From a virus (lineage: Duplodnaviria > Heunggongvirae > Uroviricota > Caudoviricetes): a stretch of 15,377 nucleotides of DNA. Every line of letters starts with the position of its first letter. The first letter of the stretch is position 1. Shown one piece after another: positions 1 to 15,377 of the stretch. The notes beneath the pieces were generated by a model, which did no database searches, was not told the origin of the DNA, and saw only the letters and a list, made by a program, of their open reading frames with translations. Location: IMG/VR virus record IMGVR_UViG_2713896899_000015; one strand, written 5' to 3'. Both the position numbers and the translations under genes were made by a program.

Positions 1-174
1 TGTCAGTTATCATCTTCGGTTACGGTTATCGGCAGAAGGCTCTGCCGCTGACAAGAGCTTATTTGCCTGACCAATCTACTTCACATGATAGATAACTATC
101 ATTTATAGCATTTGGCTTATTAACCTTTATTTTTCATTGCGTTACAAACAATAAGTTCGTCAAAAACAGTAAAA

Positions 175-230
175 TTAACTACACCATTAACTACACCGTT
201 CCACGAACAATATCGAACAACCACGAACAA
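175..230. repeat. Direct-repeat array: 2 x 12 bp tandem (ttaactacacc) then 3 x 10-bp phased units ccacgaacaa / tatcgaacaa / ccacgaacaa
   Basis: Read directly at 175-198 and 201-230. The 10-bp unit array recurs at 8402-8431 in the same orientation. One-helical-turn phasing suggests a protein-binding platform. Confidence 0.75.
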
Positions 231-303
231 AGATCAACACGCTTTAATCGTTATCGTTTTCCGGCTATCCGTTATCAAGCTGGTTGATGTGGTGCCATGT
301 TTC

Positions 304-326: not shown

Positions 327-455
327 CAGCGCAACGCATTTTTTTAATTTCGCGGGTATAAAAATTTGACGGGGCGGATAGTTCCATAAGTAATGGATTG
401 CAGGAATTTCGATCCCCCTCCTGAATGCAATTTTTCGTATATATATACAAAACAG

Positions 456-1543: not shown

Positions 1544-1837
1544 TTACGTACGCAGCCGCTCCGGTTTTTTCCACTGGTAAGTCTTTTTCTCGCTCTCCCG
1601 ATACATCTCCACGCGGCGACGATATGACAACAACTCCAGAACTCTGATCCGTATGTCGCGCATATCCACGCCGTTAATCTCGATACCGTCACGGCGCATC
1701 ACCTCAGCCACCACACGCGCGTAATTTTCGGCTATCACGCTGTCCGGCTGCGTGGCCTCCTGTTTGTCTGCTGTCTGGCTGGCTCCGGTAACACGGCGGA
1801 TTATTTTTAGTAGTTCGGTTTCGCTCATTCTCGTCAT
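1544..1837 (-). CDS. Hypothetical protein (97 aa) translationally coupled to the end of terL
   Basis: ATG at 1835-1837 overlaps the terL stop (ATGA). Last gene of the packaging operon. No recognisable motif. Stop codon sits in the centre of palindrome cgtacgta-t-tacgtacg (1536-1552). Confidence 0.5.
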   Translation of the reverse strand: MTRMSETELLKIIRRVTGASQTADKQEATQPDSVIAENYARVVAEVMRRDGIEINGVDMRDIRIRVLELLSYRRRVEMYRESEKKTYQWKKPERLRT

Positions 1838-3495
1838 ACCCCATCAAACGCCGCAAGCCGCTCTTTGTGGCTGTCGCTCATATCGAATGCAAAGTCCTCG
1901 TGCTCTGCCTGGAATGTGCCAAACGCCATCAGCGCCGCAACGCTCGGGTCTATCTTGTTGGATGATTTTTTCTTGTTCGGCTTGATATTGGCGTTCGCGT
2001 CACTCTGCATCACAACATTACTCATTGACCAGGCCAGCACCGGATCACCACGATGAACAATCACCTTCCGGTTAACAAAAACTTCGAACGATTTCGCCGC
2101 CGGACTGAAACGAAGGTATGTTTGCGGGAACGGCTCCACCTCAAATCCTGCCCCCTGTAGCTGCGTTCTCAGGTGCGTGGCGTTCCATGTATCGAAACCC
2201 ACCAGCCTGATATTGAAATTCTCTGCATCCGCCATGATGTCATCACGGATACGGTCATAATCAATGCAGTCACCCGGTGTTGTGCGTATCCAGCCCGCCT
2301 TTGCCCACTGGCGATAGATGGCGCGGTTTTTATTGGCAGGGTTCTGTAGCTGAAATTCCGGCAGATAGTGACGGGAAACCAGCATAATCTTTTTACCGAC
2401 CGGAAAGGCATAGCACACGCTGGAAATATCGCTGGTTGATGATAAGTCCAGCCCCGCGTAGCACTCCTGCCCGTATAAATCCGCCTCCGCGAACGTTCCG
2501 GCGCACTCCGCCCATGCACCGTTACCCATCCACGGCGTAGCCCCCTGACACCAGATATTGAATCGCTTGGTGAGCATTTCCACCCACTGCGACGGAATAC
2601 CCCGCGCTTTCTGGATGGTTGAGGCCAGTTTTTCACGATCGACGGAAACATCGATATTGGGATTCGCCTTTATCCACATCGCCGGATCGTCAACCTCGCT
2701 TTCATCATCCAGCTCGTAAATCAGCACGAACATGGATTCGTTCACCTCTTCACCATCCAGTATCTGGCAGCAATAGTCGTAGTGTTGTTTACAGGCTGAA
2801 ACAACGTTGCTCCCCGATGTGGTGATGGCAAATAACAGCCCCTCCGGGCGCGCCCCCATTCCCAGCTCAAGCGCGGAATAAACCCCGTTGTCAGGATGCA
2901 GGTGATATTCATCCACAATGGCGAGACTCGGGTTTGTCCCCTCAATGGTTGCCGCTTTTGCTGCCAGTGGCTTTAACAGGCTGTTGGTTTTCGGGTGTAT
3001 CACCTTGTGCGCCTGAATATTTACCCGCTTTCGTAACGGTCGGGATAAAAGGCACATCTGACGCGCATCATCAAACACGATCCGCGCCTGATCACGACTC
3101 ACGGCGGCGGTGTAAATATCCTGCTGCCCGTTTTCCATAACCAGAAACCAGTTAGCCAGGATAGCGGCGACCGTGGATTTGGCATTTTTTCGCGGTACTT
3201 CAATGAATGCGCTGGTGTATTTGCGCCGTCCGGTGGCCTTAACCTTAAAGCCCAGGATGCACGCAAAGGCGAACTGCTGCCACGGCTCCAGTTCAATGGG
3301 GCTACCGCGCATTGCACCTTTTACGTGCGGGCACACCCTGGAAAAGGCAATAAACCGCTCCACGACCTCCGGATCGAACGTGTAAAGGGGGTTTTCAAGG
3401 TCAGAAAAATACCGTTTAACGGCCTGTTTCAGTCGTTTACAGGCCGTAATTTTGCCGTTTTTTACGCCTTCTGCGTACTCATGCCAGGCGGTCAA
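1834..3495 (-). CDS. terL: Terminase large subunit (Terminase_1-type ATPase/nuclease), 553 aa
   Basis: Size and N-terminal ATPase region with P-loop-like KNAKST and a DEYH Walker-B-like motif. Follows terS with a 17-nt overlap. Apparent TTG start at 3493-3495 preceded by AGAGGA (Shine-Dalgarno). Confidence 0.88.
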   Translation of the reverse strand: MTAWHEYAEGVKNGKITACKRLKQAVKRYFSDLENPLYTFDPEVVERFIAFSRVCPHVKGAMRGSPIELEPWQQFAFACILGFKVKATGRRKYTSAFIEVPRKNAKSTVAAILANWFLVMENGQQDIYTAAVSRDQARIVFDDARQMCLLSRPLRKRVNIQAHKVIHPKTNSLLKPLAAKAATIEGTNPSLAIVDEYHLHPDNGVYSALELGMGARPEGLLFAITTSGSNVVSACKQHYDYCCQILDGEEVNESMFVLIYELDDESEVDDPAMWIKANPNIDVSVDREKLASTIQKARGIPSQWVEMLTKRFNIWCQGATPWMGNGAWAECAGTFAEADLYGQECYAGLDLSSTSDISSVCYAFPVGKKIMLVSRHYLPEFQLQNPANKNRAIYRQWAKAGWIRTTPGDCIDYDRIRDDIMADAENFNIRLVGFDTWNATHLRTQLQGAGFEVEPFPQTYLRFSPAAKSFEVFVNRKVIVHRGDPVLAWSMSNVVMQSDANANIKPNKKKSSNKIDPSVAALMAFGTFQAEHEDFAFDMSDSHKERLAAFDGV

Positions 3496-3835
3496 GCTCG
3501 TCCTCTTCCTCTGTTTCCGGTGGATTTCTGCGTCGGCTTACCGGGTCAAAACCCAGCAAAGAAGCCATTTTGATCATTATTCTTTCTGCGTCAGCCTTTG
3601 CGCTCAGGGCGGGGTTTCTGCTCTCGCTGCCCTGACTGTTAACAATGCTGAAGCCGCGCGTCGCAAGGTCTTCGACGGCTTTGCGGTATATGGAGTAGTT
3701 AACGCAATACAGTTCCAGATTGCTCCAGTCGGCGGGGGTAAGGTCTTCCCGCCCGGAAAGCTGGCGCGATTTTTCCTTCCACTGCCTGACCGCGATTTCA
3801 TCCAGGTAAGCGGGGGCTTTTGGTGGTCTTGCCAT
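3479..3835 (-). CDS. terS: Terminase small subunit, P27 family (118 aa from MARPPKAP...)
   Basis: N-terminus MARPPKAPAYL, internal LELYC..Y, and C-terminal NP....A.....K...LGFDP.SR then acidic tail, as in phage P27-family TerS. The ORF-track 5' extension to 3976 is judged non-coding. ATG at 3833-3835. Confidence 0.8.
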   Translation of the reverse strand: MARPPKAPAYLDEIAVRQWKEKSRQLSGREDLTPADWSNLELYCVNYSIYRKAVEDLATRGFSIVNSQGSESRNPALSAKADAERIMIKMASLLGFDPVSRRRNPPETEEEDELDRLA

Positions 3836-3954
3836 GTTCTTTTTTCGCCCAATTATTTTCAAAAAAATTCCCGTGCACAAAAATTTGAGGAGGCGGTCGG
3901 TGTCCGGCAGGGGCGGTTTCGTCCTGAAAACCTCCCCCACCCCCTCTGACGGCC

Positions 3955-4140
3955 TCACCAGCGATTGCGAAAACATTCCATGACCTCGCGGTCACGGTCG
4001 GTTAATCGCTTCGCTGTGGTGCGTTCTGTGCGCTCTGTCCTGTTGGCTTTGTGCCCTGTCTCCTGTGTCTTCCATAAGTCACGCTGCCTTATCAGTCCAC
4101 GTATCAGCCTGTTTTGCTCCTGTTCAGTCATCATCGCCAT
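3955..4140 (-). CDS. Possible small basic protein (61 aa) between HNH and terS; uncertain
   Basis: ATG at 4138-4140 overlaps the last 15 nt of the HNH gene in another frame. Weak Shine-Dalgarno, Arg/Thr/Glu-rich. Could instead be non-coding (this region is a cos-site candidate). Confidence 0.3.
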   Translation of the reverse strand: MAMMTEQEQNRLIRGLIRQRDLWKTQETGHKANRTERTERTTAKRLTDRDREVMECFRNRW

Positions 4141-4564
4141 ACATCCAGTCGTTACGATGTGCCGCCCGTTCTTCCTGCTCGCGATACATGCCCGCCTTAC
4201 GGTTCGCTTTCGTGGCTGGATCTTCCCGTGTCGTCTTACGGTTGTGGCACGTCTGGCACAATGCCTGGTGGTTCCACTCAGGCCAGAAGAGAACATCACC
4301 GCCGCCATTGATGGGAATGATGTGATCCACCACAAGAGCTGGCGTATAAATACCCTTAGCCAGACAACGCACGCATAACGGATTTTTTTTCAGGTACATG
4401 GCGCGGTATTTGTCCCACAGTCGGGAATACCCACGTGCGCGGCGGTGTCCCCGTCTGGCATCCTCTGCACGCCATGCAGCCCGCCTGTGCTCTTCACACT
4501 TGCCGGACTTCACGCGCTTATTACAGCCCGGCTCAGTGCATCGCCTTAATGGTTGCCATGGCAT
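4124..4564 (-). CDS. HNH endonuclease (terminase-associated), 146 aa
   Basis: Cys-rich N-terminus (C..C..C), then VDHIIP...WNHQALCQTCHNRKT, an HNH motif. Sits immediately upstream of terS-terL as in HNH-dependent cos packaging modules. TGATG coupling to the upstream gene. Confidence 0.9.
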   Translation of the reverse strand: MPWQPLRRCTEPGCNKRVKSGKCEEHRRAAWRAEDARRGHRRARGYSRLWDKYRAMYLKKNPLCVRCLAKGIYTPALVVDHIIPINGGGDVLFWPEWNHQALCQTCHNRKTTREDPATKANRKAGMYREQEERAAHRNDWMYGDDD

Positions 4565-4860
4565 CAGTACACCCCCACATCACGATAAACCGACCAGAGC
4601 GCGGAAATCGTCAGGGGAATTTCTTTTGTATCGGTATCGCCAAGCGTTGTCCGGTACTCGTACAGTTGCGAGATGTACATCAGGCAACCAATTTTTATTG
4701 CAGGGGTAAATTCCAGGCCGTCATCAAAACGCCTGCCAATATGCTTCTGGCATACCTCCAGCGCCGCGCTTATGTATGCCTGAATCAGTGTGTCTTCTGT
4801 GTTACCATCTATGCGGCAGTGAAGTTTGGCCTCTTCCAGGGTTATTTTTTCTGCTGTCAT
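4564..4860 (-). CDS. Head-tail connector protein, gp6-like (98 aa)
   Basis: N-terminus ITLEEAKLHCRIDGNTEDTLIQAYISAALEVCQ is characteristic of the gp6-like connector family. ATGA overlap with the upstream gene. Confidence 0.7.
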   Translation of the reverse strand: MTAEKITLEEAKLHCRIDGNTEDTLIQAYISAALEVCQKHIGRRFDDGLEFTPAIKIGCLMYISQLYEYRTTLGDTDTKEIPLTISALWSVYRDVGVY

Positions 4861-5195
4861 TTTTCTGTACCCACCTTTGCCAGAATTTCCAGCCGGGTTC
4901 TTTTCGCATCAGGTAAGGGGATCCCGATGATATTAAGCGTGCTCCCGGCAAAAGCGCCGGTAAGCACTTTCAGGCGACTGGCGGCGGATATGTCGCCACG
5001 ATAGCGAACCCATACCCGAATCGTTGCAGGTGCGGTTTCTGCGCCTGCGGTCAGTAATTCCCGTCCGCTGATCCCCTTGACCTCTGCCCAGATGGTTTCC
5101 CCTTCCGTCCATATCTGCTGGATCGCACCTGACGGCAGGCGCTGTGTGGTAAATGTCATAATCGTCACCCGGTCCCGCATATTTCCGGCTATCAT
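4857..5195 (-). CDS. Head-closure / head-tail adaptor protein (Phage_H_T_join-like), 112 aa
   Basis: Pattern RDRVTI...IWAEVKGISGRE...IRVWVRYRGDI...LNIIGI matches the head-closure family. ATGA overlap with the portal stop. Confidence 0.7.
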   Translation of the reverse strand: MIAGNMRDRVTIMTFTTQRLPSGAIQQIWTEGETIWAEVKGISGRELLTAGAETAPATIRVWVRYRGDISAASRLKVLTGAFAGSTLNIIGIPLPDAKRTRLEILAKVGTEK

Positions 5196-6415
5196 TCGTC
5201 ACCGCCCTTACTGTTCTTGCTGATTGTCACTTCCTGCTTCCATGCCTGGCTGAACTCGTCGCCACCTTCACGCGGCGGCATTCCCTCACGCTCACGGGCT
5301 TCGTTCGGATTCATGATCCCGTTCTTAATTCCTTTCTCATACGTGGCGTAACGTTCGGTAGGTGTGGCGCGCAGTAAATCGGCTGAATCAAACTCAACCA
5401 GATAACGGGTACCAGGTACGGGAGAAGCCACCAGCAAAGCAGCCTTGATTTGCTGTTCGAAGTTCGCCAGCCATGGGCGCATTGTCATGGTCAGAAACGC
5501 GCGGCTTGCCTCGCTGAAATTGCTGTAGGTGCTATTGCTGTATTCCTGCAGAAAAATAGGCGATACGTTGAACATCCGGGCGATGTCTTCAATGGAGAAG
5601 CGACGGGAGGCCAGCCATTCCGCATCCTGGTTACTCATTCCCAGTTGCTTGTAATCCATGCCCCCTTCAAGGATTGGCGTTTTTCCGGCATTTTTCGCCC
5701 CCTTGTAGCGTTCCAGAGCATCCAATGCCTGTTTACCTTTCACGCCGTCCAGCCATTCGCCTGACGTGATAATCCCTGCCGCCATCATGCCATCTTTCAT
5801 AATGCTGGCTCCGTGGCGCTGTTGAGCAAGGCCAAGCCCAAGTGCCTCACGGCAAATCGTGACAGGGGAGCGCCCCAGAAAGCCATCATCCGAGGCATAG
5901 CGGAGATGCAGAACTTCTTCCTGTAAATACGTGCGCACCGTTCCTGTATAGGGTTCGGTGATGGTATAGCGGTATTTGTGTGCGCCTGTGCGTTCCGGTA
6001 CAACACAACCCGGTGCATAAGGATGAAGTGATTTGGGCTGCCCGTCCCGCCCCCACTCAATAACCGCATAGGCGTTACCGTTCAGCAGGCAGTGACGCAT
6101 CATTGTGCGTTTAAACTGGTAAGGTGTCTGGCACGAATTAGGCTGCTCATTCAGCAGAATATCTACCGGATGACTGTCCAGCCATTCCCGCGCCTCCCTG
6201 CCCTTGTCATTACGTACCAGATACAGATAACAAGGCATCGTGGCCACCGCCTCAGCGATGACAGAAACCGCGTTCATCACTGCAGGCAATGATTCAGCCG
6301 TTCCGGCAGAAACATATTCTCCGGATCCGGTATTCGGTACACCGGACAGCGCCAGAAAATCATCAATGGACAGGTTACGCAGATCGCTTTTTTTACGACT
6401 AAAAGGCCACCACAT
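5192..6415 (-). CDS. Portal protein, HK97 family (407 aa from MWWPF...)
   Basis: Length and composition typical of HK97-type portals. ATG at 6413-6415 lies 1 nt after the protease stop. The ORF-track extension to 6505 uses a TTG and overlaps the protease gene, so is judged unlikely. Confidence 0.85.
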   Translation of the reverse strand: MWWPFSRKKSDLRNLSIDDFLALSGVPNTGSGEYVSAGTAESLPAVMNAVSVIAEAVATMPCYLYLVRNDKGREAREWLDSHPVDILLNEQPNSCQTPYQFKRTMMRHCLLNGNAYAVIEWGRDGQPKSLHPYAPGCVVPERTGAHKYRYTITEPYTGTVRTYLQEEVLHLRYASDDGFLGRSPVTICREALGLGLAQQRHGASIMKDGMMAAGIITSGEWLDGVKGKQALDALERYKGAKNAGKTPILEGGMDYKQLGMSNQDAEWLASRRFSIEDIARMFNVSPIFLQEYSNSTYSNFSEASRAFLTMTMRPWLANFEQQIKAALLVASPVPGTRYLVEFDSADLLRATPTERYATYEKGIKNGIMNPNEAREREGMPPREGGDEFSQAWKQEVTISKNSKGGDE

Positions 6416-6416
6416 A

Positions 6417-6977
6417 TCACAACCCCGCCAGTTCAGCCCAGCGATGACGATTATTTCCTGCCGGGCGTAATTCAGGGTGCTGTGCAAACAACGAACGGTG
6501 GGCAATCTCCACGCCGGATTCGGGATAAGCAGGCATCGACGTTATCGTGATTTCACGGAGTTCTGCGGCAGTTACGGTACGCAGATACGGTTTTTGCGCG
6601 ATACTCCACTCCTCGCATAATGCGCGAAAACCAAAGCTCATTCCTGTAATGTCGCCACGCTCCACCAGCGTAAGCACATCTTTTCCAAGCTGGGTATCCG
6701 GCGGTGTCAGCTCAAAACGTAACCCGGTGTTATCCTCAGTCAGTACCAGAGTGCCGGATTTGGTGCGCCCCAGCAGTTGGGTATAGTCATGCTCATACAG
6801 GCAGCGCACATCATTACCCGCCGCCAGATAGTCAGCAAAAGCCCCCGGCGTGAACTGTTCGCGGAATTCGTCCCAGATAATTTCTGAAAGGCTGTTCCAG
6901 CGAACGGCATAACCCACCAGTTTTTTATCGCTGGCGGTCAGTTCAGATGTGCGGATTTCAAAATCGGTGTTTTTCAT
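6417..6977 (-). CDS. Prohead protease, HK97 family (186 aa)
   Basis: Motifs GYAVRWNS...GxxxxLxEDxxGL...GMSFGF are characteristic of HK97-family prohead maturation proteases. GGAG Shine-Dalgarno 8 nt upstream of the ATG. Confidence 0.85.
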   Translation of the reverse strand: MKNTDFEIRTSELTASDKKLVGYAVRWNSLSEIIWDEFREQFTPGAFADYLAAGNDVRCLYEHDYTQLLGRTKSGTLVLTEDNTGLRFELTPPDTQLGKDVLTLVERGDITGMSFGFRALCEEWSIAQKPYLRTVTAAELREITITSMPAYPESGVEIAHRSLFAQHPELRPAGNNRHRWAELAGL

Positions 6978-7031: not shown

Positions 7032-8201
7032 CTAGCCAGCTTTCATTTCCAGAATTTTGATGGCGTTTGAATCCACCACACCACCGCCCAGATATTTATC
7101 CGTGTGGACCTTGTAGAATCCGGGTTCAGTAATGTTGTCCGGTCGGGTGCGAATCCCTGTTACATGATCAACGATGAAATAACCACGACTGAAATCGCCA
7201 ACCGCTAGCGGTGCTTTTCCTGCGCCGATGTCCGGCATGGACTCCAGGCAGTAAACAGGACGACCAAGCAACATATCCGGCGCACCTTCTTTAAGGCTGT
7301 CGCGCCAGATATAATCGCCGTTCTCATTTTTCAGCTTCTGTAGTGTCCCTGCCGTGCCCGAGTTCATCACCCAGACGGCATTTTTGCGGTATTTCGCTTT
7401 CAGCTTGTAGAGAATGTCGATCAGTTCGTCCGCTGTAATGGCGGTTCCACTTGCCGCTACCATTTTTTCAATGGTGCCAAAAGCGCGGGTTTTGTCACTG
7501 GTCGCCGCACGGGTGTAAGCCATGAATCCTTTCGGCTTGCCGTTACCGTCGCCATTAACAAAATCATCCTCTTCGGTGCTGGCGAACGTGTCGGCAATTT
7601 CGGAGGATAACCAGCCCAGAATATCCACCTCTGAAAAATCCAAGATTTCCTGCGTGGTTTTCGGGTAGGCGTAGATCGGATTCAGCTTGATGGTTACGCG
7701 TTCAATTTTCGGGGTGTTGGTTTCGCTGCGCGCGCTGCCTTCTGTGCCTCTTCCTACAGTTGCGCCGCCAGTGGAAACCAGTTTCTGAAACTCATTTGAT
7801 TTTGCGGTCTTCACGGTCGCGATCACGCGCATAACACTGTCATCCTGTAGCTGGCGCATGACTTCGCGATCAAGCTCAGGAATTACGGTATATCCGCCAT
7901 CCCTGCCGCTGTCAGTGCTGGTGGACAGTGATCGCACATCTCCGGTTACGATATAGTTACGCAATTCATCAGATGATAATTTCTGGATGCCCGTTCCTGG
8001 CTTGCTGCGTTCTTCATCAGCCACAGACTCGAGGCGGGAAATTTCTGTGTCGAGGGAATCGGCTTTTGCACGCAGTTCATCAAACTGTTTGCCCTCGTCA
8101 TCGTTCAGGCTGCGGTTTTCACTGTCGGCTTTTTCCAGCAGGGATCGCATCTGGTTTTTCAGGGCGGTTTTTTGCTGGCGGAGTTCGATTAATTTCTTCA
8201 T
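7032..8201 (-). CDS. Major capsid protein, HK97 fold, with N-terminal coiled-coil delta (scaffold) domain (389 aa)
   Basis: N-terminal ~100 aa is charged and heptad-like (delta domain). C-terminal region GTAGTLQKL...LLGRPV...GDFSRGYFIVD is typical of HK97-family capsid proteins. No separate scaffold gene. Confidence 0.9.
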   Translation of the reverse strand: MKKLIELRQQKTALKNQMRSLLEKADSENRSLNDDEGKQFDELRAKADSLDTEISRLESVADEERSKPGTGIQKLSSDELRNYIVTGDVRSLSTSTDSGRDGGYTVIPELDREVMRQLQDDSVMRVIATVKTAKSNEFQKLVSTGGATVGRGTEGSARSETNTPKIERVTIKLNPIYAYPKTTQEILDFSEVDILGWLSSEIADTFASTEEDDFVNGDGNGKPKGFMAYTRAATSDKTRAFGTIEKMVAASGTAITADELIDILYKLKAKYRKNAVWVMNSGTAGTLQKLKNENGDYIWRDSLKEGAPDMLLGRPVYCLESMPDIGAGKAPLAVGDFSRGYFIVDHVTGIRTRPDNITEPGFYKVHTDKYLGGGVVDSNAIKILEMKAG

Positions 8202-9944: not shown

Positions 9945-12080
9945 TTAATCTTCTTCGCTTTCTGGCTGGAACATCAGCACGTAAAAAACATGCTGCTTCC
10001 CCCCAATTTTGCCGAGCGCCTTTTTCTTGTAACGGCGATCGTTACCCGCTTCCAGCATTCCGGCAGCACTCAACGCGCGGGCAAAGTGAGACGGATTAAA
10101 TCCCTGTGCTATCTCACCCTCAAATACATGCGGGAATGTGTAAAAACGGAACTCGTCATCTTCGTTTCTGATACTCCCCTTTCTGTATCCGGCAAGCTCT
10201 TTAATCGGTAAATCACGCTCGTCAGAGTTGGGCCAGGGAAGGTATCTGCTGAATCCGAACGACGCTAAAAAAGCCTCTGCCTGTTCAACCATCTGTTTAA
10301 ACTCCCTGTTACCCGTGCCGAACTCCTTCACCCAGGCATTAAAATTATGCTGTATGGCATCGCGGCATTCCTGCTCATCCCAGCCAGTAACATGACCTGA
10401 AAGCACAAGCGCGGCCTCCAGTATGGCAAATCGCTCCCCCACACGGTGAACCTGTTCGCCGTAGCTCTCCGGTATCAGGTTGCGCCACCGCTCACGGCAT
10501 GTCCTTACCGTGTCCTTTGCCTCCTGCTGGTGTTCTGCCAGCCATTTAACCCACTCACGACCCGCTGCCCCGTGATTTTCTGTCCAGGCATCCTTTAACG
10601 CGTCTGCGTGCGCCTTTCCGGTGCTGTATTCGTGAAATTGTGTGGCTTTTTCCATCGGCACGTTAAGCAGACGGACAAGCTGCCCCGCTTTAATTTTTAT
10701 CCCTTCCGTTTTGAGGAATGTTTCAACGTCCATTTCTCCGGTACTGATTGCCACCGTGCGCCAGTGTTTGATCTCCCTGTTGCCGCCGTCCTTCGCCCCC
10801 TGTAATTTCCCCGAACCGTTAAACAGCGTATAAGCCGACGTGGACACTTCCCGCGCGTTTCCGGCCTGACCTATTTCATCCAGGGGTAACAGCCCGTCAT
10901 TGTGCGCCTCTGCCTCGTTGGCGATGCCTAACGCTGTACCGTACCAGGTCAGCCGTTGCGCGTCCGGCTCTCCCCATAAACTGGATGCGATGTTCTGTGT
11001 GGTGGTTTTCCCTGCCGATGACTGTTCGAAAAGATGTACCCCGAAGCCGTCAGCACCCACCAGCCCGATTAATGGTGCGGATAATGATACCGCCACACCC
11101 AGCATCATGGACGGATTACCACCAGCCAACCGCGCAACGGTATCGCGCCAGCCCTCCGCCGTTCCTGCCACGGAATAACCATTAACAGCGGCAGTTTTTC
11201 CGGTAAACAGGACTGGCTTTTCGCAATCACCAATGACCGAACCGTCCGGCATGATGTACGCGCCAAAATGCCAGCCCGTTGTTGTGCTTAACTGCCATTC
11301 CTCATGGTTTCCGCTTAACTGCATCCAGTCAGCCAGGATAGCCCTGTATTTACCGTTGGTTGTCACATTCAGTCCGTGGTCTTTCAGCAGCCGCCAGCCG
11401 TCACGGTCGCCAATGCCCCCACACGGGATCGCCATTGTGATGACTTCATGGTTTGCTGGTTTTTTCCAGCGCATCACGCGGTAATGCTCTTTGCCGATTG
11501 TCCCCGTTCCCAGTAGTTCAAGCGGGGAACATAACCACGTCTCAGGCCGGATAATTTCGCCTGACTGCTTATCCACTTTTGGCGTTACCCAGAAAACACC
11601 ATCGGCACGGCTTTCAACGCGGGGCTTTAATTCATCATCACCCGGGCTTGTGGTGGTTTTTTTCTTTACCGGAAGTTTAATTACCAGATCTGCAGAAAGA
11701 TTCTGACGCTCAACGTTCAGATAGCGCCGCCAGTTCTCGCATTTCTGACCGTGCATTCCTTCAGGGTAAAAATTCGCATCCTGAATATCTGCCGCCGCCA
11801 GCTTCTGACCGATCTTTTTGGTCTCCACTAAATCCAGTTCTCCGGCCTGGTACAGCCTTACGCGTTTTTTCCCATCCGGAACAATTTTCAGCGCATCAAG
11901 TTCGGCAAGCTGATTTGGCCCAAGCCACACAGGCGGCACATCATCGCCAGATGCGGGGCCGTCCTGCTCCTGCCACTGTTTTGCATGTGCCCACGCATCA
12001 CTACCCGCGAAAATAATTACCTCTGTGTCTTTGTGTTTTATTCCGCGTGGTTGTTTTTTTACGTTCGGTGCCAGTTTCAT
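9945..12080 (-). CDS. Replication initiator, primase/helicase-type (PICI Pri-Rep / P4 alpha-like), 711 aa
   Basis: Large multidomain protein with a P-loop (SSAGKTT) in the central region. Directly upstream of the iteron origin. ATG at 12078-12080 overlaps the preceding gene stop (ATGA). Domain family not verified by search. Confidence 0.75.
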   Translation of the reverse strand: MKLAPNVKKQPRGIKHKDTEVIIFAGSDAWAHAKQWQEQDGPASGDDVPPVWLGPNQLAELDALKIVPDGKKRVRLYQAGELDLVETKKIGQKLAAADIQDANFYPEGMHGQKCENWRRYLNVERQNLSADLVIKLPVKKKTTTSPGDDELKPRVESRADGVFWVTPKVDKQSGEIIRPETWLCSPLELLGTGTIGKEHYRVMRWKKPANHEVITMAIPCGGIGDRDGWRLLKDHGLNVTTNGKYRAILADWMQLSGNHEEWQLSTTTGWHFGAYIMPDGSVIGDCEKPVLFTGKTAAVNGYSVAGTAEGWRDTVARLAGGNPSMMLGVAVSLSAPLIGLVGADGFGVHLFEQSSAGKTTTQNIASSLWGEPDAQRLTWYGTALGIANEAEAHNDGLLPLDEIGQAGNAREVSTSAYTLFNGSGKLQGAKDGGNREIKHWRTVAISTGEMDVETFLKTEGIKIKAGQLVRLLNVPMEKATQFHEYSTGKAHADALKDAWTENHGAAGREWVKWLAEHQQEAKDTVRTCRERWRNLIPESYGEQVHRVGERFAILEAALVLSGHVTGWDEQECRDAIQHNFNAWVKEFGTGNREFKQMVEQAEAFLASFGFSRYLPWPNSDERDLPIKELAGYRKGSIRNEDDEFRFYTFPHVFEGEIAQGFNPSHFARALSAAGMLEAGNDRRYKKKALGKIGGKQHVFYVLMFQPESEED

Positions 12081-14138: not shown

Positions 14139-15377
14139 TCAAGAATTTTGGGTGTAAATTCGCGGGGTCATAACAACGATTTTTTCATCATTGTTCTGGA
14201 GAAGCTCGAGACGGTCTACCCATAGATTAAGAGCATCACGTTTTGCATCAAGATAACGGGAGTGGTTATAGACTCGTTGCATCCCTGGCATCTGGTGGGC
14301 TGTAAGCTGCTCGACAATATGCGGATCCACGCCTAAATCGTTCAGCATGGTTGTAAATGTGTGCCGGATATCGTGTAACGTCCAGGGGGCTTGATTAATT
14401 CGTCTGTGCGCTGTTCTTCCGTACTCTGCTACGGATGATTGCCCTTTCAGTTCTCCAAGCAATAAGCCCGTGTGCCTGTTCTTCTCCACCAGCTGCGTGA
14501 CGAACGGCAGAATGCTTTCCGGTATTGGTCTGAATATGGCGACCTTCGTTTTGCTGTGCTCCTTCGGTACTGTCCAGAGCATTTCCTTAAAATCCCACTC
14601 CTGCACCTCAGAGCGCCTTAGCTCAGTGGTACGGCATCCAAAAACAATCAGGAGGCGAATTAGGGCGCTGTAGTACGGCGGGAAGATTTTTTCATCCAGT
14701 GCGCGGAGTAGTTCCCCAAGCTCTTTGTTTGTCAGTACACGCTCACTTATTTCTGCTTTTTTCCCCACATCACCTACGACCATATCATCAAGAACGTTGC
14801 TGATTGCGTATCGTCGTTTTCGGCAGTACTTAAGCGCCTGTTTGCATACCTGTAGCAAAAATCCGGCTGATACCGGATTACGCTTAGCAAGCTGGTCAAA
14901 ACAGGCCAGCCAGTGGCGTAGCTCGCATTTTTCCAGTGGCATAGCGCCAATCTGGCTAATTATGTGTTTATTGATCCGGCTTTTCAGTGATTCGTAGTCA
15001 GTGCGCTTTTCCTTTGCGTACGATTCAAGCCAGTAAGTGAGCGCTTCCTTAACCGTCACGGGGGCTAACGCATCCTGTACAGCATGATTAAGTTCATAAC
15101 GCGGATTTTTCCCCTCAGCCAGCCAGGCGCGACACTGTGCCGCTTTTTCCCTGGCAGCTTTCAGGCTCAGATCGGGATAATTGCCCAGCCTCAGACGTTC
15201 CGGTGATATCTGCCTACCAGTTCCGGCCCTGTAAGTGAAATACCAGGTTAACAGGCCATTGATTGAATGCCTTACGCTAAGGTTGCCACCATCATTAAAA
15301 AAGGTGCTTTTTGTGGTTGGTGATCCGCTTAATTTTCGTAAAAGAGTGTCGCTAAGTCTATGAATTGCCCTGCTCAT
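14139..15377 (-). CDS. int: Tyrosine recombinase / site-specific integrase, P4-like (412 aa; start codon on the window edge)
   Basis: C-terminal catalytic region HDIRHTF...LTAHQMPGMQRVYNHSRY contains the H-x-x-R and terminal Tyr nucleophile context of tyrosine integrases. Size is typical of P4-family integrases. The ATG occupies 15375-15377, so a further upstream start cannot be excluded. Confidence 0.9.
   Translation of the reverse strand: MSRAIHRLSDTLLRKLSGSPTTKSTFFNDGGNLSVRHSINGLLTWYFTYRAGTGRQISPERLRLGNYPDLSLKAAREKAAQCRAWLAEGKNPRYELNHAVQDALAPVTVKEALTYWLESYAKEKRTDYESLKSRINKHIISQIGAMPLEKCELRHWLACFDQLAKRNPVSAGFLLQVCKQALKYCRKRRYAISNVLDDMVVGDVGKKAEISERVLTNKELGELLRALDEKIFPPYYSALIRLLIVFGCRTTELRRSEVQEWDFKEMLWTVPKEHSKTKVAIFRPIPESILPFVTQLVEKNRHTGLLLGELKGQSSVAEYGRTAHRRINQAPWTLHDIRHTFTTMLNDLGVDPHIVEQLTAHQMPGMQRVYNHSRYLDAKRDALNLWVDRLELLQNNDEKIVVMTPRIYTQNS

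Follow-up and report, generated by a model that had tools for sequence, protein, structure and literature searches.

Phage HK97 has 10-nt 3' overhangs, and cleavage at its cos requires an HNH protein together with the terminase (PMC9410871, PMC11331095). This cos lies between the genes for the HNH protein gp74 and for TerS (gp1), 319 nt past the former and 49 nt ahead of the latter; TerL is gp2. A G-run precedes the cut by ~45-55 nt, and the 10-nt overhang region is GC-rich (GAC followed by CGCCGCCAAA). In phiP27, a full Stx2e phage with a P27-family TerS, the depositors annotated a 10-nt cos-site, CGCCCGCCCC, and the order is HNH (L34)-cos-terS (L35). The cos of lambda is tripartite (cosQ-cosN-cosB), with an upstream element at the packaged end, a nick site, and a TerS-binding region before terS. 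The island described here follows the same tripartite logic, whereas lambda has 12-nt 5' overhangs, no HNH partner, a terminase unrelated to that of the island, and no sequence similarity to it. Among satellites, the classical PICI EcCICFT073 carries two cos sites and Rpp, a small packaging-specificity protein (Fillol-Salom 2018, 2019), and provides a precedent for this combination; its cos sites are of the lambda type and depend on the helper terminase, and Rpp is a TerS-like DNA-binding protein. [quoted passage not shown] The accessible parts of the texts describing them (Alqurainy et al. 2022/2023, He et al. 2025) contain neither a cos placement nor a name for the small ORF discussed below.

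The window, i.e. the whole stretch of 15,377 nt that was analysed, is a cf-PICI, a phage satellite, with its genes on the minus strand. The island extends over ~15.3 kb from the chromosomal flank (window positions 1-106) to int at 14139-15377 and encodes, besides the integrase, a DUF927 primase, capsid, protease, portal, two connector genes, HNH, P27 terS, and terL; no tail genes occur in the gene set of the window. This content agrees with the definition of cf-PICIs, namely an integrase, regulation and replication genes, and a full capsid and packaging module within ~10-18 kb, without a complete tail or lysis module. The HNH gene is labelled 'HNH endonuclease signature motif containing protein' by PGAP, and its product shows 36% identity to HK97 gp74 (E 8e-17). 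By analogy, this protein would act together with the terminase when cos is cleaved in the HK97 manner.

HNH and terS are separated by 288 nt (3836-4123), the terS ATG being at position 3835. The interval is found in ~9% of complete E. coli genomes. A preliminary description of this DNA regarded it as an unusual 290-bp gap between two genes that are normally adjacent. The gap is real, but it is not unusual, since a cos-bearing HNH-terS interval is the norm for this packaging type. Adjacency is not what related elements show either: across 12 related elements of 11 genera the two genes are 262-289 nt apart, phiP27 has 115 nt between them, ST64B ~125 nt, Pasteurella Pmp8 127 nt, and HK97 368 nt, and cos sits between HNH and terS wherever it has been mapped or annotated in related phages (HK97, phiP27). 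Most likely, the interval is composite, with a small conserved gene followed by a 119-nt non-coding cos region (Table 1), so that the two options offered earlier, an extra small packaging factor or a cis-acting site such as cos, are both represented, one by a conserved gene and the other by a cos-like non-coding element. An O157:H7 island that is 83% identical to the window over the interval also carries the small ORF and the cos blocks. An N-terminal extension of terS from an ATG at 3976 was considered and rejected; its frame is not kept in other genera.

Table 1. Coordinates of the packaging genes, of the parts of the HNH-terS interval, and of the left-end element (window positions).
Feature	Length	Position	Strand	Basis
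Second cos-like element, phiP27 type		345..425	(-)	nhmmer E 3e-4
terL, large terminase	553 aa	1834..3495	(-)	Pfam PF03354 and PF20441
terS, small terminase, P27 family	118 aa	3479..3835	(-)	Pfam PF05119, E 1.6e-23; PGAP
Non-coding region with predicted cos, small-ORF stop to terS ATG	119 nt	3836..3954	(-)	nhmmer profile
Core downstream of predicted cut, CTCAAATTTTTGTGCACGGGAATTTTTTTGAAAATAA		3853..3889	(-)	Pairwise identity 0.84-0.96 (3860-3889), highest of the HNH-terS region
Predicted cohesive-end 10-mer, CGACCGCCTC	10 nt	3890..3899	(-)	Aligned to phiP27 cos-site and to HK97 terminal 10 nt
Variable spacer, G-block to C-rich block		3900..3920	(-)	Pairwise identity 0.53 at 3910-3919; highest diversity within E. 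coli
G-block, GAGGGGGTGGGGGAGGTTTTCAGGAC		3921..3946	(-)	Pairwise identity 0.81-0.85 over 13 genera
Small conserved gene (PGAP annotation)	61 aa	3955..4140	(-)	ORF; WP_072248979.1, hypothetical protein; phrog_3173
Variable ACAG-rich middle of small ORF		4006..4066	(-)	Alignment gap, lowest conservation
HNH endonuclease gene	146 aa	4124..4564	(-)	Pfam PF01844, E 9e-10

The non-coding segment was compared among elements with an nhmmer profile built from 14 of its cf-PICI copies. This profile recovers the window (E 2.8e-33), Pasteurella Pmp8 (E 1.5e-14), and the cos region of phiP27 (E 9.5e-7). In Pmp8, the same blocks are found directly between HNH and terS, without the small ORF. The conserved element of the window (3853-3946) stops 17 nt before the terS ATG, which places it in the position between HNH and terS. 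Its ~95 nt are arranged as G-block, variable spacer, C-rich 10-mer, and (C/G)TCAAATTTTT...GCACGG..ATTTTTTT. The G-rich tracts mentioned in the preliminary description are indeed present (GAGGGGGTGGGGGAGG at 3931-3946, minus strand); GGTGGGGG is invariant across the 14 aligned enterobacterial copies, the G-run is shifted in the Pasteurella element, and G-runs occur at the matching relative position in Pmp8, phiP27, ST64B, and HK97. The G-block is located upstream of the predicted cut, i.e. at the end of the packaged DNA, and forms an inverted repeat with the C-rich 10-mer region. A GTGCAC palindrome was also considered and dropped, being specific to E. coli and not conserved.

The link to a phage-defined cos runs through phiP27. 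A blastn search with the consensus gave a match on the phiP27 feature annotated as cos-site (E 6e-3 against 2.3 Gb), and the similarity covers nearly the whole non-coding element (profile positions 7-93). The annotated phiP27 10-mer aligns column for column with CGACCGCCTC of the window, and its register matches that of the final 10 nt of the HK97 record. Directly after the 10-mer, phiP27 and the island share (G/C)TCAAATTTTTA, followed by ACACCCGCGAAATTAAAAA in phiP27 and GTGCACGGGAATTTTTTTG in the island, a difference that would fit differing TerS specificities. By analogy with these phages, we predict a cut between 3890 and 3889 on the minus strand that would leave a 10-nt 3' overhang, both its exact position and its polarity being inferred. 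Positions +15 to +29 from the cut (3861-3875, CACGGGAATTTTTTT) form a putative TerS-binding site, in register with the minimal TerS site of HK97, an A-tract at +15 to +29, CTAACCCGATTTTTT. This assignment is one of analogy, because the TerS of HK97 shows no sequence relationship to the P27-family TerS of the island. A T7 tract ~20-26 nt before the terS ATG lies at +23 to +29 in the island, where it is conserved in all cf-PICIs, and at +24 to +30 in HK97. At the DNA level, HK97 cos was rejected as a homologue (local alignment score of 17, against 14.8 +/- 2.1 for shuffles, and no nhmmer match in HK97), and we treat it as an architectural analogue.

The anatomy of the segment, its conservation, and its homology to the annotated cos region of phiP27 are established by sequence comparison. 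None of the features listed in the preliminary description (gap, ORF, G-tract, CTGT-rich repeats) exceeds chance when taken by itself: the window holds 117 ORFs of at least 40 aa, and GGGGTGGGGG with at most one mismatch is expected 1.17 times per window. Their support is comparative and does not come from statistics within the window. Taken as a whole, we consider it likely that 3836-3954 is the island's own cos, of the ordinary HNH-dependent type, accompanied by a lineage-specific accessory gene. This reading overturns nothing, the site being where the HK97 paradigm predicts it. Nor does it agree with the earlier suggestion of an alternative cos location, as the site is conserved in every related cf-PICI examined, including those without the left-end site discussed below.

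Two assemblies place the ends of the linear element around the segment and thereby support this position indirectly, the second of them weakly. The record vB_KppS-Ant corresponds to the cf-PICI of K. pneumoniae DSM 30104, has the same HNH-small ORF-cos-terS layout as the window, and is a SPAdes assembly of Nextera XT libraries made from particle DNA. It is linear and lacks exactly 69 nt of the segment, the missing stretch reaching 31 nt from the predicted cut in one direction and 38 nt in the other. In the chimeric record PQ569648.1, the cf-PICI part ends on both sides of the segment. This argument assumes that tagmentation loses reads at the ends of molecules. For the Klebsiella element KpCIDSM30104, cohesive-end concatemers have been reported (He et al.). 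A contig from a phage lysate, OR845787.1, runs straight across the site, and whole-element contigs of 15-17 kb cross it uninterrupted. Two Logan contigs stop 44 and 59 nt past the small-ORF stop, and one 15.9-kb IMG/VR contig stops 77 nt past it with divergent terminal bases; we set these ends aside as evidence for termini, since they may be assembly breaks.

Two other readings of the conserved blocks have to be weighed against an own cos between HNH and terS. The phiP27-type element at the left end could be the functional cos, with the HNH-terS element as a relic. It has the same orientation as the main cos and lies ~3.5 kb downstream of it, and its 97% identity to the phiP27 cos-site region over 37 nt, together with a G-block of its own, speaks for such a role. 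In classical PICIs, too, cos is located close to an end, and the left end is shared by a satellite of strain BH100N that resembles classical PICIs. The element occurs in ~20 of the cf-PICI loci examined and in 252 of 5426 E. coli genomes, but the EDL933 island, another O157:H7 island, and the Klebsiella vB_KppS-Ant record all lack it, and EcCIEDL933 packages itself with its own terminase (Alqurainy et al.). The HNH-terS element, in contrast, occurs in all cf-PICIs examined, no other DNA of the region is as conserved, and the Klebsiella particle-DNA assembly ends there; a relic at this position is therefore very unlikely. The blocks might also act at the transcript level on terS and terL, as a translation-controlling stem-loop or an attenuator, instead of being cut. 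The element does occur in the terS 5' leader, and RNAalifold predicts pairing between G-block and C-block (9 bp) and between TCAAA and TTTGA, but the covariation term amounts to 0.03 kcal/mol, a compensatory change is found in 1 of 17 pairs, and the non-coding segment has no Rfam match at E <= 1. Since the same element bears the annotated cos-site in phiP27 and particle-DNA assemblies end inside it, we regard a regulatory RNA in place of a cut site as highly improbable.

With the HNH-terS element as the probable cos, packaging could proceed as follows. After excision and replication, the island TerS would bind the GCACGG/T-tract region ~15-29 bp downstream of the cut, and TerL and the HNH protein would introduce staggered nicks around the 10-mer, giving cohesive ends. 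Packaging would then run from the terS side via terL, att, int, and the replication and capsid genes to HNH and the small gene, and would halt at the next cos, leaving the G-block just inside the packaged end. A probable packaging cut site is thereby placed for a widespread family of phage satellites, with related forms from Klebsiella to Xenorhabdus and in Pasteurella, and the prediction is specific: a cut next to CGACCGCCTC and TerS binding at the T-tract. It may be of use for engineering DNA delivery based on cf-PICIs, for reading virome assemblies, and for interpreting published mutants of the packaging module. The analysis also flags a conserved accessory gene of ~50 aa that is always coupled to HNH.

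This small gene corresponds to the 61-aa ORF overlapping the HNH stop that had been pointed out in the preliminary description, and the ORF holds up: it runs from ATG 4140 to the stop at 3955-3957 on the minus strand and overlaps the last 17 nt of HNH. Additional in-frame ATGs occur at 4134 and 4131, and the start conserved across genera is ATG 4131 (58 aa), which directly overlaps the HNH stop (ATGACTGA). Because of this overlap, translation of the small gene is probably coupled to that of HNH. The product matches phrog_3173 over profile positions 1-57 of 57 (E 1.3e-28), as do homologues from Klebsiella, Rahnella, and Rosenbergiella. The family falls into 139 clusters at 90% identity and into 25 at 50%, and every member is a stand-alone protein of ~50 aa. 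The proteins are basic (pI 10-11.6), and the AF2 model (pLDDT 79) shows two helices, at 3-38 and 45-55. The C-terminal motif RDRE(L/V)xECFRNR is near-invariant, and the N-terminal half occurs in two sequence types, for which no co-variation with TerS, HNH, or cos variants was found. A likeness of the C-terminal motif to the first helix of a LuxR/sigma-r4 HTH was dropped, as it had no profile support.

The gene was observed only in the HNH-terS slot of enterobacterial cf-PICI packaging modules, across more than 12 enterobacterial genera. It occupies this slot in 12 GTDB genomes of other genera, as well as in Xenorhabdus and Hafnia, and all 12 enterobacterial elements whose interval is intact have retained it. 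Two further elements were sampled: one from Citrobacter has mostly lost the small gene and kept cos, and a decayed one from Shigella keeps the small gene. Among 64 E. coli haplotypes, the gene is intact in 61 and cut short in three; a TGA at codon 42 is one nonsense change that occurs in nature. When conservation of the ORF was set against synonymous drift, a check proposed earlier, the reading frame proved to be maintained: the indels (+21, -12, and -9 nt) are all in frame, and dN/dS for unsaturated pairs is 0.25 for the window and an O157:H7 island, 0.19 for Phytobacter and Klebsiella, and 0.06 for Rahnella and Erwinia. On these comparisons, the small gene is a real, conserved gene under purifying selection.

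What the small protein does is less clear, and several readings compete. That the ORF arises by chance and the whole 288 nt are cis-acting DNA is scarcely credible. Short ORFs are common in the window, and other frames over the non-coding part are also open in several genera, the DNA being so conserved, but the frame of the small ORF stays open at ~50% amino-acid divergence with every indel in frame, variation by codon position is 0.33, 0.32, and 0.50 (highest at the third position), dN/dS is well below 1, and the family is recognised by both PHROGs and PGAP. A gene that is real and unrelated to packaging, i.e. cargo (a 'moron') in a permissive slot by the distal end of the packaged genome, is a genuine possibility; its target could be the helper phage or competing elements, or it could have a regulatory role. 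The core machinery works in the absence of the protein, as Pasteurella cf-PICIs, phiP27, and ST64B show. This also tempers the earlier proposal of a small packaging factor, while the conservation of the gene and the purifying selection on it stand. The slot moreover tolerates different inserts, because HK97 has an unrelated, unannotated 67-aa ORF there, and natural nonsense and deletion alleles of the small gene exist, as do swaps of its N-terminal half between the two types independently of neighbouring genes. Against cargo stand the position kept in all intact enterobacterial intervals and in Xenorhabdus and Hafnia, the constant overlap with the HNH stop, and the near-invariant C-terminal motif.

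Our tentative preference is for a protein that aids packaging at cos, or the function of HNH and terminase, without being essential. When the genes of the EcCIEDL933 packaging module were mutated one by one (Alqurainy et al.), 'hypothetical gene 1792' was the only one whose mutation left transfer severely reduced, not abolished. The small gene may be this gene 1792, in which case its loss would severely cut transfer, again at odds with cargo. The EDL933 RefSeq tags leave two candidates, the small ORF and a hypothetical gene after terL; a cluster look-up returned no EDL933 tag. A more specific role is conceivable although rather unlikely, in which the small basic protein would be a cf-PICI-specific packaging-specificity factor and the left-end second cos would serve as a back-up route via the helper terminase. 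The synthesis of such a factor would keep pace with that of HNH, and its site of action would be the island's cos, with the G-block or the HNH-TerL nicking complex as possible targets. If so, the island terminase would cut and package island DNA only, which would answer in part why cf-PICI packaging is exclusive from that of the helper. The protein shows no similarity to known packaging accessory or specificity proteins (Rpp, Ppi, lambda gpFI, and TerS-like DNA-binding domains), it belongs to no Pfam family and to no annotated PHROG beyond phrog_3173, a Foldseek search against the PDB gave no match, and a search among 1.84 billion representatives returned matches of the same family only.

The middle of the small ORF contains the CTGT-rich repeats (plus strand) to which the preliminary description had drawn attention. 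They are present, but they are weak and are situated within the variable, ACAG-rich part of the coding sequence, where a 21-nt in-frame insertion specific to Escherichia is accompanied by a 9-nt tandem unit (RTERTER). A terminator-like hairpin at 3978-3997, also within the small ORF, was discarded after inspection of the multi-genus alignment, as it is not conserved in other genera. A search for promoter-like sites gave none on the minus strand. TRF reports the 9-nt unit with 2.2 copies at 4019-4038 (score 33), and one 17-nt direct repeat with 82% identity connects 4027-4043 and 4050-4066.

The interval between HNH and terS is most probably an ordinary cos site of the HK97/phiP27 type with a lineage-specific small gene upstream. 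The features noted in the preliminary description are present: the gap measures 288 nt from the HNH stop (4124-4126) to the terS ATG (3835), a 61-aa ORF runs from an ATG at 4140 to a stop at 3955-3957 and shares the last 17 nt of HNH, and a G-rich tract, GAGGGGGTGGGGGAGG, occurs at 3931-3946. The CTGT-rich repeats amount to a 9-nt unit in 2.2 copies and one imperfect 17-nt repeat, both of which fall within the ORF. Neither the gap, the ORF, the G-tract nor the repeats are statistically remarkable inside the window, so their importance had to be decided by comparison with other sequences. The gap, described as unusual, proved not to be, since HK97 also has a cos-bearing HNH-terS interval, with 319 nt from HNH to the right end and 49 nt from the left end to terS; such an interval is thus the archetype rather than an anomaly. 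HK97 also has an unannotated 67-aa ORF (NC_002167.1 39394-39597; comparison locus L020, 495-698) whose start codon falls inside the 3' end of gp74, the HNH gene; its slot is that of the window's small gene, but it is unrelated in sequence and has no Pfam match.

All large ORFs in the window lie on the minus strand, and no tail or lysis genes are found among them. RefSeq annotates near-identical DNA in E. coli O177:H21, and likewise an 83% identical island in O157:H7, with this layout. The window belongs with the capsid-forming PICIs (cf-PICIs) such as EcCIEDL933 (Alqurainy et al.), and positions 1-106 are the chromosomal yljB-clpS flank.

Genes and second cos-like element of the island, in window coordinates
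Feature	Coordinates	Strand	Remark
Tyrosine integrase	14139-15377	minus	
DUF927 primase	9945-12080	minus	
Major capsid	7032-8201	minus	
Prohead protease	6417-6977	minus	
Portal	5192-6505	minus	
Head closure	4857-5195	minus	
Head-tail connector	4564-4860	minus	
HNH endonuclease	4124-4564	minus	
P27-family small terminase (terS)	3479-3835	minus	
Large terminase (terL)	1834-3495	minus	
Second cos-like element, phiP27 type	345-425	minus	own G-block, then CCGCCCCGTCAAATTTTTATACCCGCGAAATTAAAAA

By sequence comparison, the 119 nt at 3836-3954 are most probably the cos region. Across 13 genera, pairwise identity is 0.84-0.96 at 3860-3889, above that of the flanking coding DNA, and 0.81-0.85 in the G-block (3920-3939), with 0.53 in the spacer between them. 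This set of blocks is also present in the Pasteurella element Pmp8, directly between HNH and terS. When the consensus was compared by BLAST with 50,697 phage records, it matched a phiP27 feature labelled 'cos-site' by its depositors, located between the phiP27 HNH and P27-type terS. An nhmmer profile built from 14 cf-PICI copies of the non-coding element matched Pmp8 (E 1.5e-14), phiP27 (E 9.5e-7, profile positions 7-93) and ST64B (E 0.1), with no match in HK97. Eight junctions aligned with MAFFT are colinear, in the order G-run, spacer, GC-rich 10-mer, (G/C)TCAAATTTTT, A/T tract and terS ATG, and the phiP27 cos 10-mer CGCCCGCCCC falls in register with the decamer that ends the HK97 record, CGCCGCCAAA; the window counterpart is CGACCGCCTC at 3890-3899. 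The ends of HK97 DNA are 10-nt 3' overhangs, and HK97 TerS binds +15 to +29, A-tract included (PMC9410871, PMC11331095). With 3889 as +1, these positions read CACGGGAATTTTTTT in the window versus CTAACCCGATTTTTT in HK97.

Indirect evidence on the ends of packaged DNA comes from vB_KppS-Ant, a 16.5-kb cf-PICI in GenBank that was grown on K. pneumoniae DSM 30104 and assembled with SPAdes from Nextera XT reads of its particle DNA. This linear record begins 22 nt upstream of terS and ends 37 nt past the small ORF. Exactly 69 nt of an integrated Klebsiella copy are absent from it, 31 nt on one side of the predicted cut and 38 nt on the other, a pattern expected from tagmentation of a linear fixed-end molecule. 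The DSM 30104 element forms cohesive-end concatemers (He et al.). As counter-evidence, one low-coverage lysate contig runs across the site; whole-element metagenome contigs do so too, as expected from integrated or concatemeric DNA. We also observe that the 106.5-kb 'complete genome' PQ569648.1 ('Klebsiella phage P12620-1'; locus L230, 1146-17004) is chimeric. The final 15.9 kb are a cf-PICI that starts at terS codon 2, where unrelated sequence adjoins it, and ends in the last codons of its small ORF, with the segment between again omitted.

As to other readings of the non-coding segment, there was no Rfam match, no covariation in the predicted pairing of G-block and C-block, and no promoter-like site on the minus strand. 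The only terminator-like hairpin lies inside the ORF and, by inspection of the multi-genus alignment, is not conserved. A longer N-terminus for terS is excluded, as the frame is not kept in other genera. In a Shigella flexneri element (L003, 3605-3659), the right half of cos and the start of terS are gone.

The cf-PICI cos profile gives a weaker second match at 348-386 (E 3e-4), oriented like the main cos and ~3.5 kb downstream of it, within the island and ~240 nt from its boundary. Over 37 nt, its core and the phiP27 cos region share 97% identity. This left-end site occurs in ~20 of the compared cf-PICI loci and in 252 of 5426 E. coli genomes, and is absent from the EDL933 island (EcCIEDL933), the other O157:H7 island compared and the vB_KppS-Ant record. 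It is probably what the preliminary description had in mind as the primary cos, with the HNH-terS site as an alternative; the evidence favors the latter as the island's own cos. Since the left-end 10-mer TATCCGCCCC and the downstream tract differ from those of the main site, both sites are unlikely to be cut by one enzyme. There is precedent for two cos sites in classical PICIs, and the left-end site may serve packaging via a helper's terminase or be left over from recombination with a classical PICI. E. coli BH100N (NZ_CP025703.1; L239, 5722-16141) carries at yljB-clpS a 10.7-kb classical PICI-like satellite with int, alpA, primase, a ClpP-protease/capsid fusion and a DUF1441 protein, and without portal, HNH or terminase genes. 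One end matches the first 900 nt of the window at 96% identity, second cos-like site included. Given this shared end, the window island seems to be a mosaic in which a cf-PICI packaging module is joined to this end segment.

The comparisons also show the small ORF to be a genuine gene. It is annotated by PGAP in E. coli, and its product matches phrog_3173 (E 1.3e-28). Scanning a single genome of each species with HNH as the query gave 12 usable loci in other genera (Shigella, Intestinirhabdus, Phytobacter, Pantoea, Klebsiella, Enterobacter, Kosakonia, Rahnella, Rosenbergiella, Erwinia, Citrobacter and Pluralibacter). All except Citrobacter have a 46-57-aa ORF (60 aa in the annotation) at the HNH stop, starting on or just before it and ending 125-131 nt before terS. 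Reading-frame conservation, proposed earlier as a check, holds: with proteins only ~40-50% identical to that of the window, the frame is open in every case, and lengths differ by +21, -12 and -9 nt. Mean pairwise differences at codon positions 1, 2 and 3 are 0.33, 0.32 and 0.50, and dN/dS is 0.06-0.25 for pairs with unsaturated dS (0.03-0.15 for HNH and terS). A profile search extends the family to 139 clusters at 90% identity (25 at 50%), all stand-alone ~50-aa proteins of Enterobacterales, unnamed and without Pfam domains; distant members from Xenorhabdus and Hafnia occupy the identical slot in cf-PICI modules.

The preliminary description had offered a packaging factor or a cos site, and each of these options is half right. 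The interval appears to hold both a gene and a cos region, and the role of a non-essential packaging helper is our best guess for the small protein, held tentatively as the weakest step of the analysis. It is suggested by a start codon that overlaps the HNH stop, by the basic charge (pI 10-11.6), by the fixed place beside cos and by the C-terminus, where the motif RDRE(L/V)xECFRNR is almost invariant. When every packaging-module gene of EcCIEDL933 was mutated, transfer was abolished in all but 'hypothetical gene 1792', whose mutant showed severely reduced transfer (Alqurainy et al.). Gene 1792 is probably the small ORF, since the EDL933 module contains no other hypothetical gene, and the region beyond, where a further hypothetical gene follows terL, is variable cargo (He et al.).

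The main rival, that the small gene is itself cargo unrelated to packaging, is somewhat doubtful but deserves serious weight. The gene is accessory, not a core part: phiP27 and ST64B lack it, as does Pmp8 (TerS 61% identical; HNH-terS 127 nt), the Citrobacter amalonaticus element (L014, 3413-3585) has lost most of it while keeping the non-coding element with cos, and 3 of 64 E. coli haplotypes (IMG/VR loci L061, L065 and L066) have a nonsense codon at position 42. Two types of the N-terminal half exist, and they show no correspondence to the neighboring genes. The predicted structure, a long helix and a short C-terminal helix (pLDDT 79), has no fold match in the PDB. The role of this protein and the dual-cos arrangement are the points of interest in an otherwise modest region.

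Elsewhere in the island, window 172-231 is similar to both ends of the related O177:H21 island (L001, 9190-9249 and 23768-23796), and these segments are probably att or integrase-arm sites. The HNH N-terminus (residues 1-40, window 4564-4450) has a ~38-aa extension, not in HK97 gp74, that bears the Cys/His pattern CTEPGCNKRVKSGKCEEH. Directly 3' of terL, Hafnia cf-PICIs (L241 and L242, 11294-14569) have a gene of 1089-1091 aa whose product matches tape-measure Pfam families, and Klebsiella cf-PICIs (L017, 2036-4333; L021, 12295-14601) one of 765-768 aa, labelled tape measure protein in the vB_KppS-Ant record and without a recorded Pfam match in the other copy; these cf-PICIs are otherwise without tail genes.
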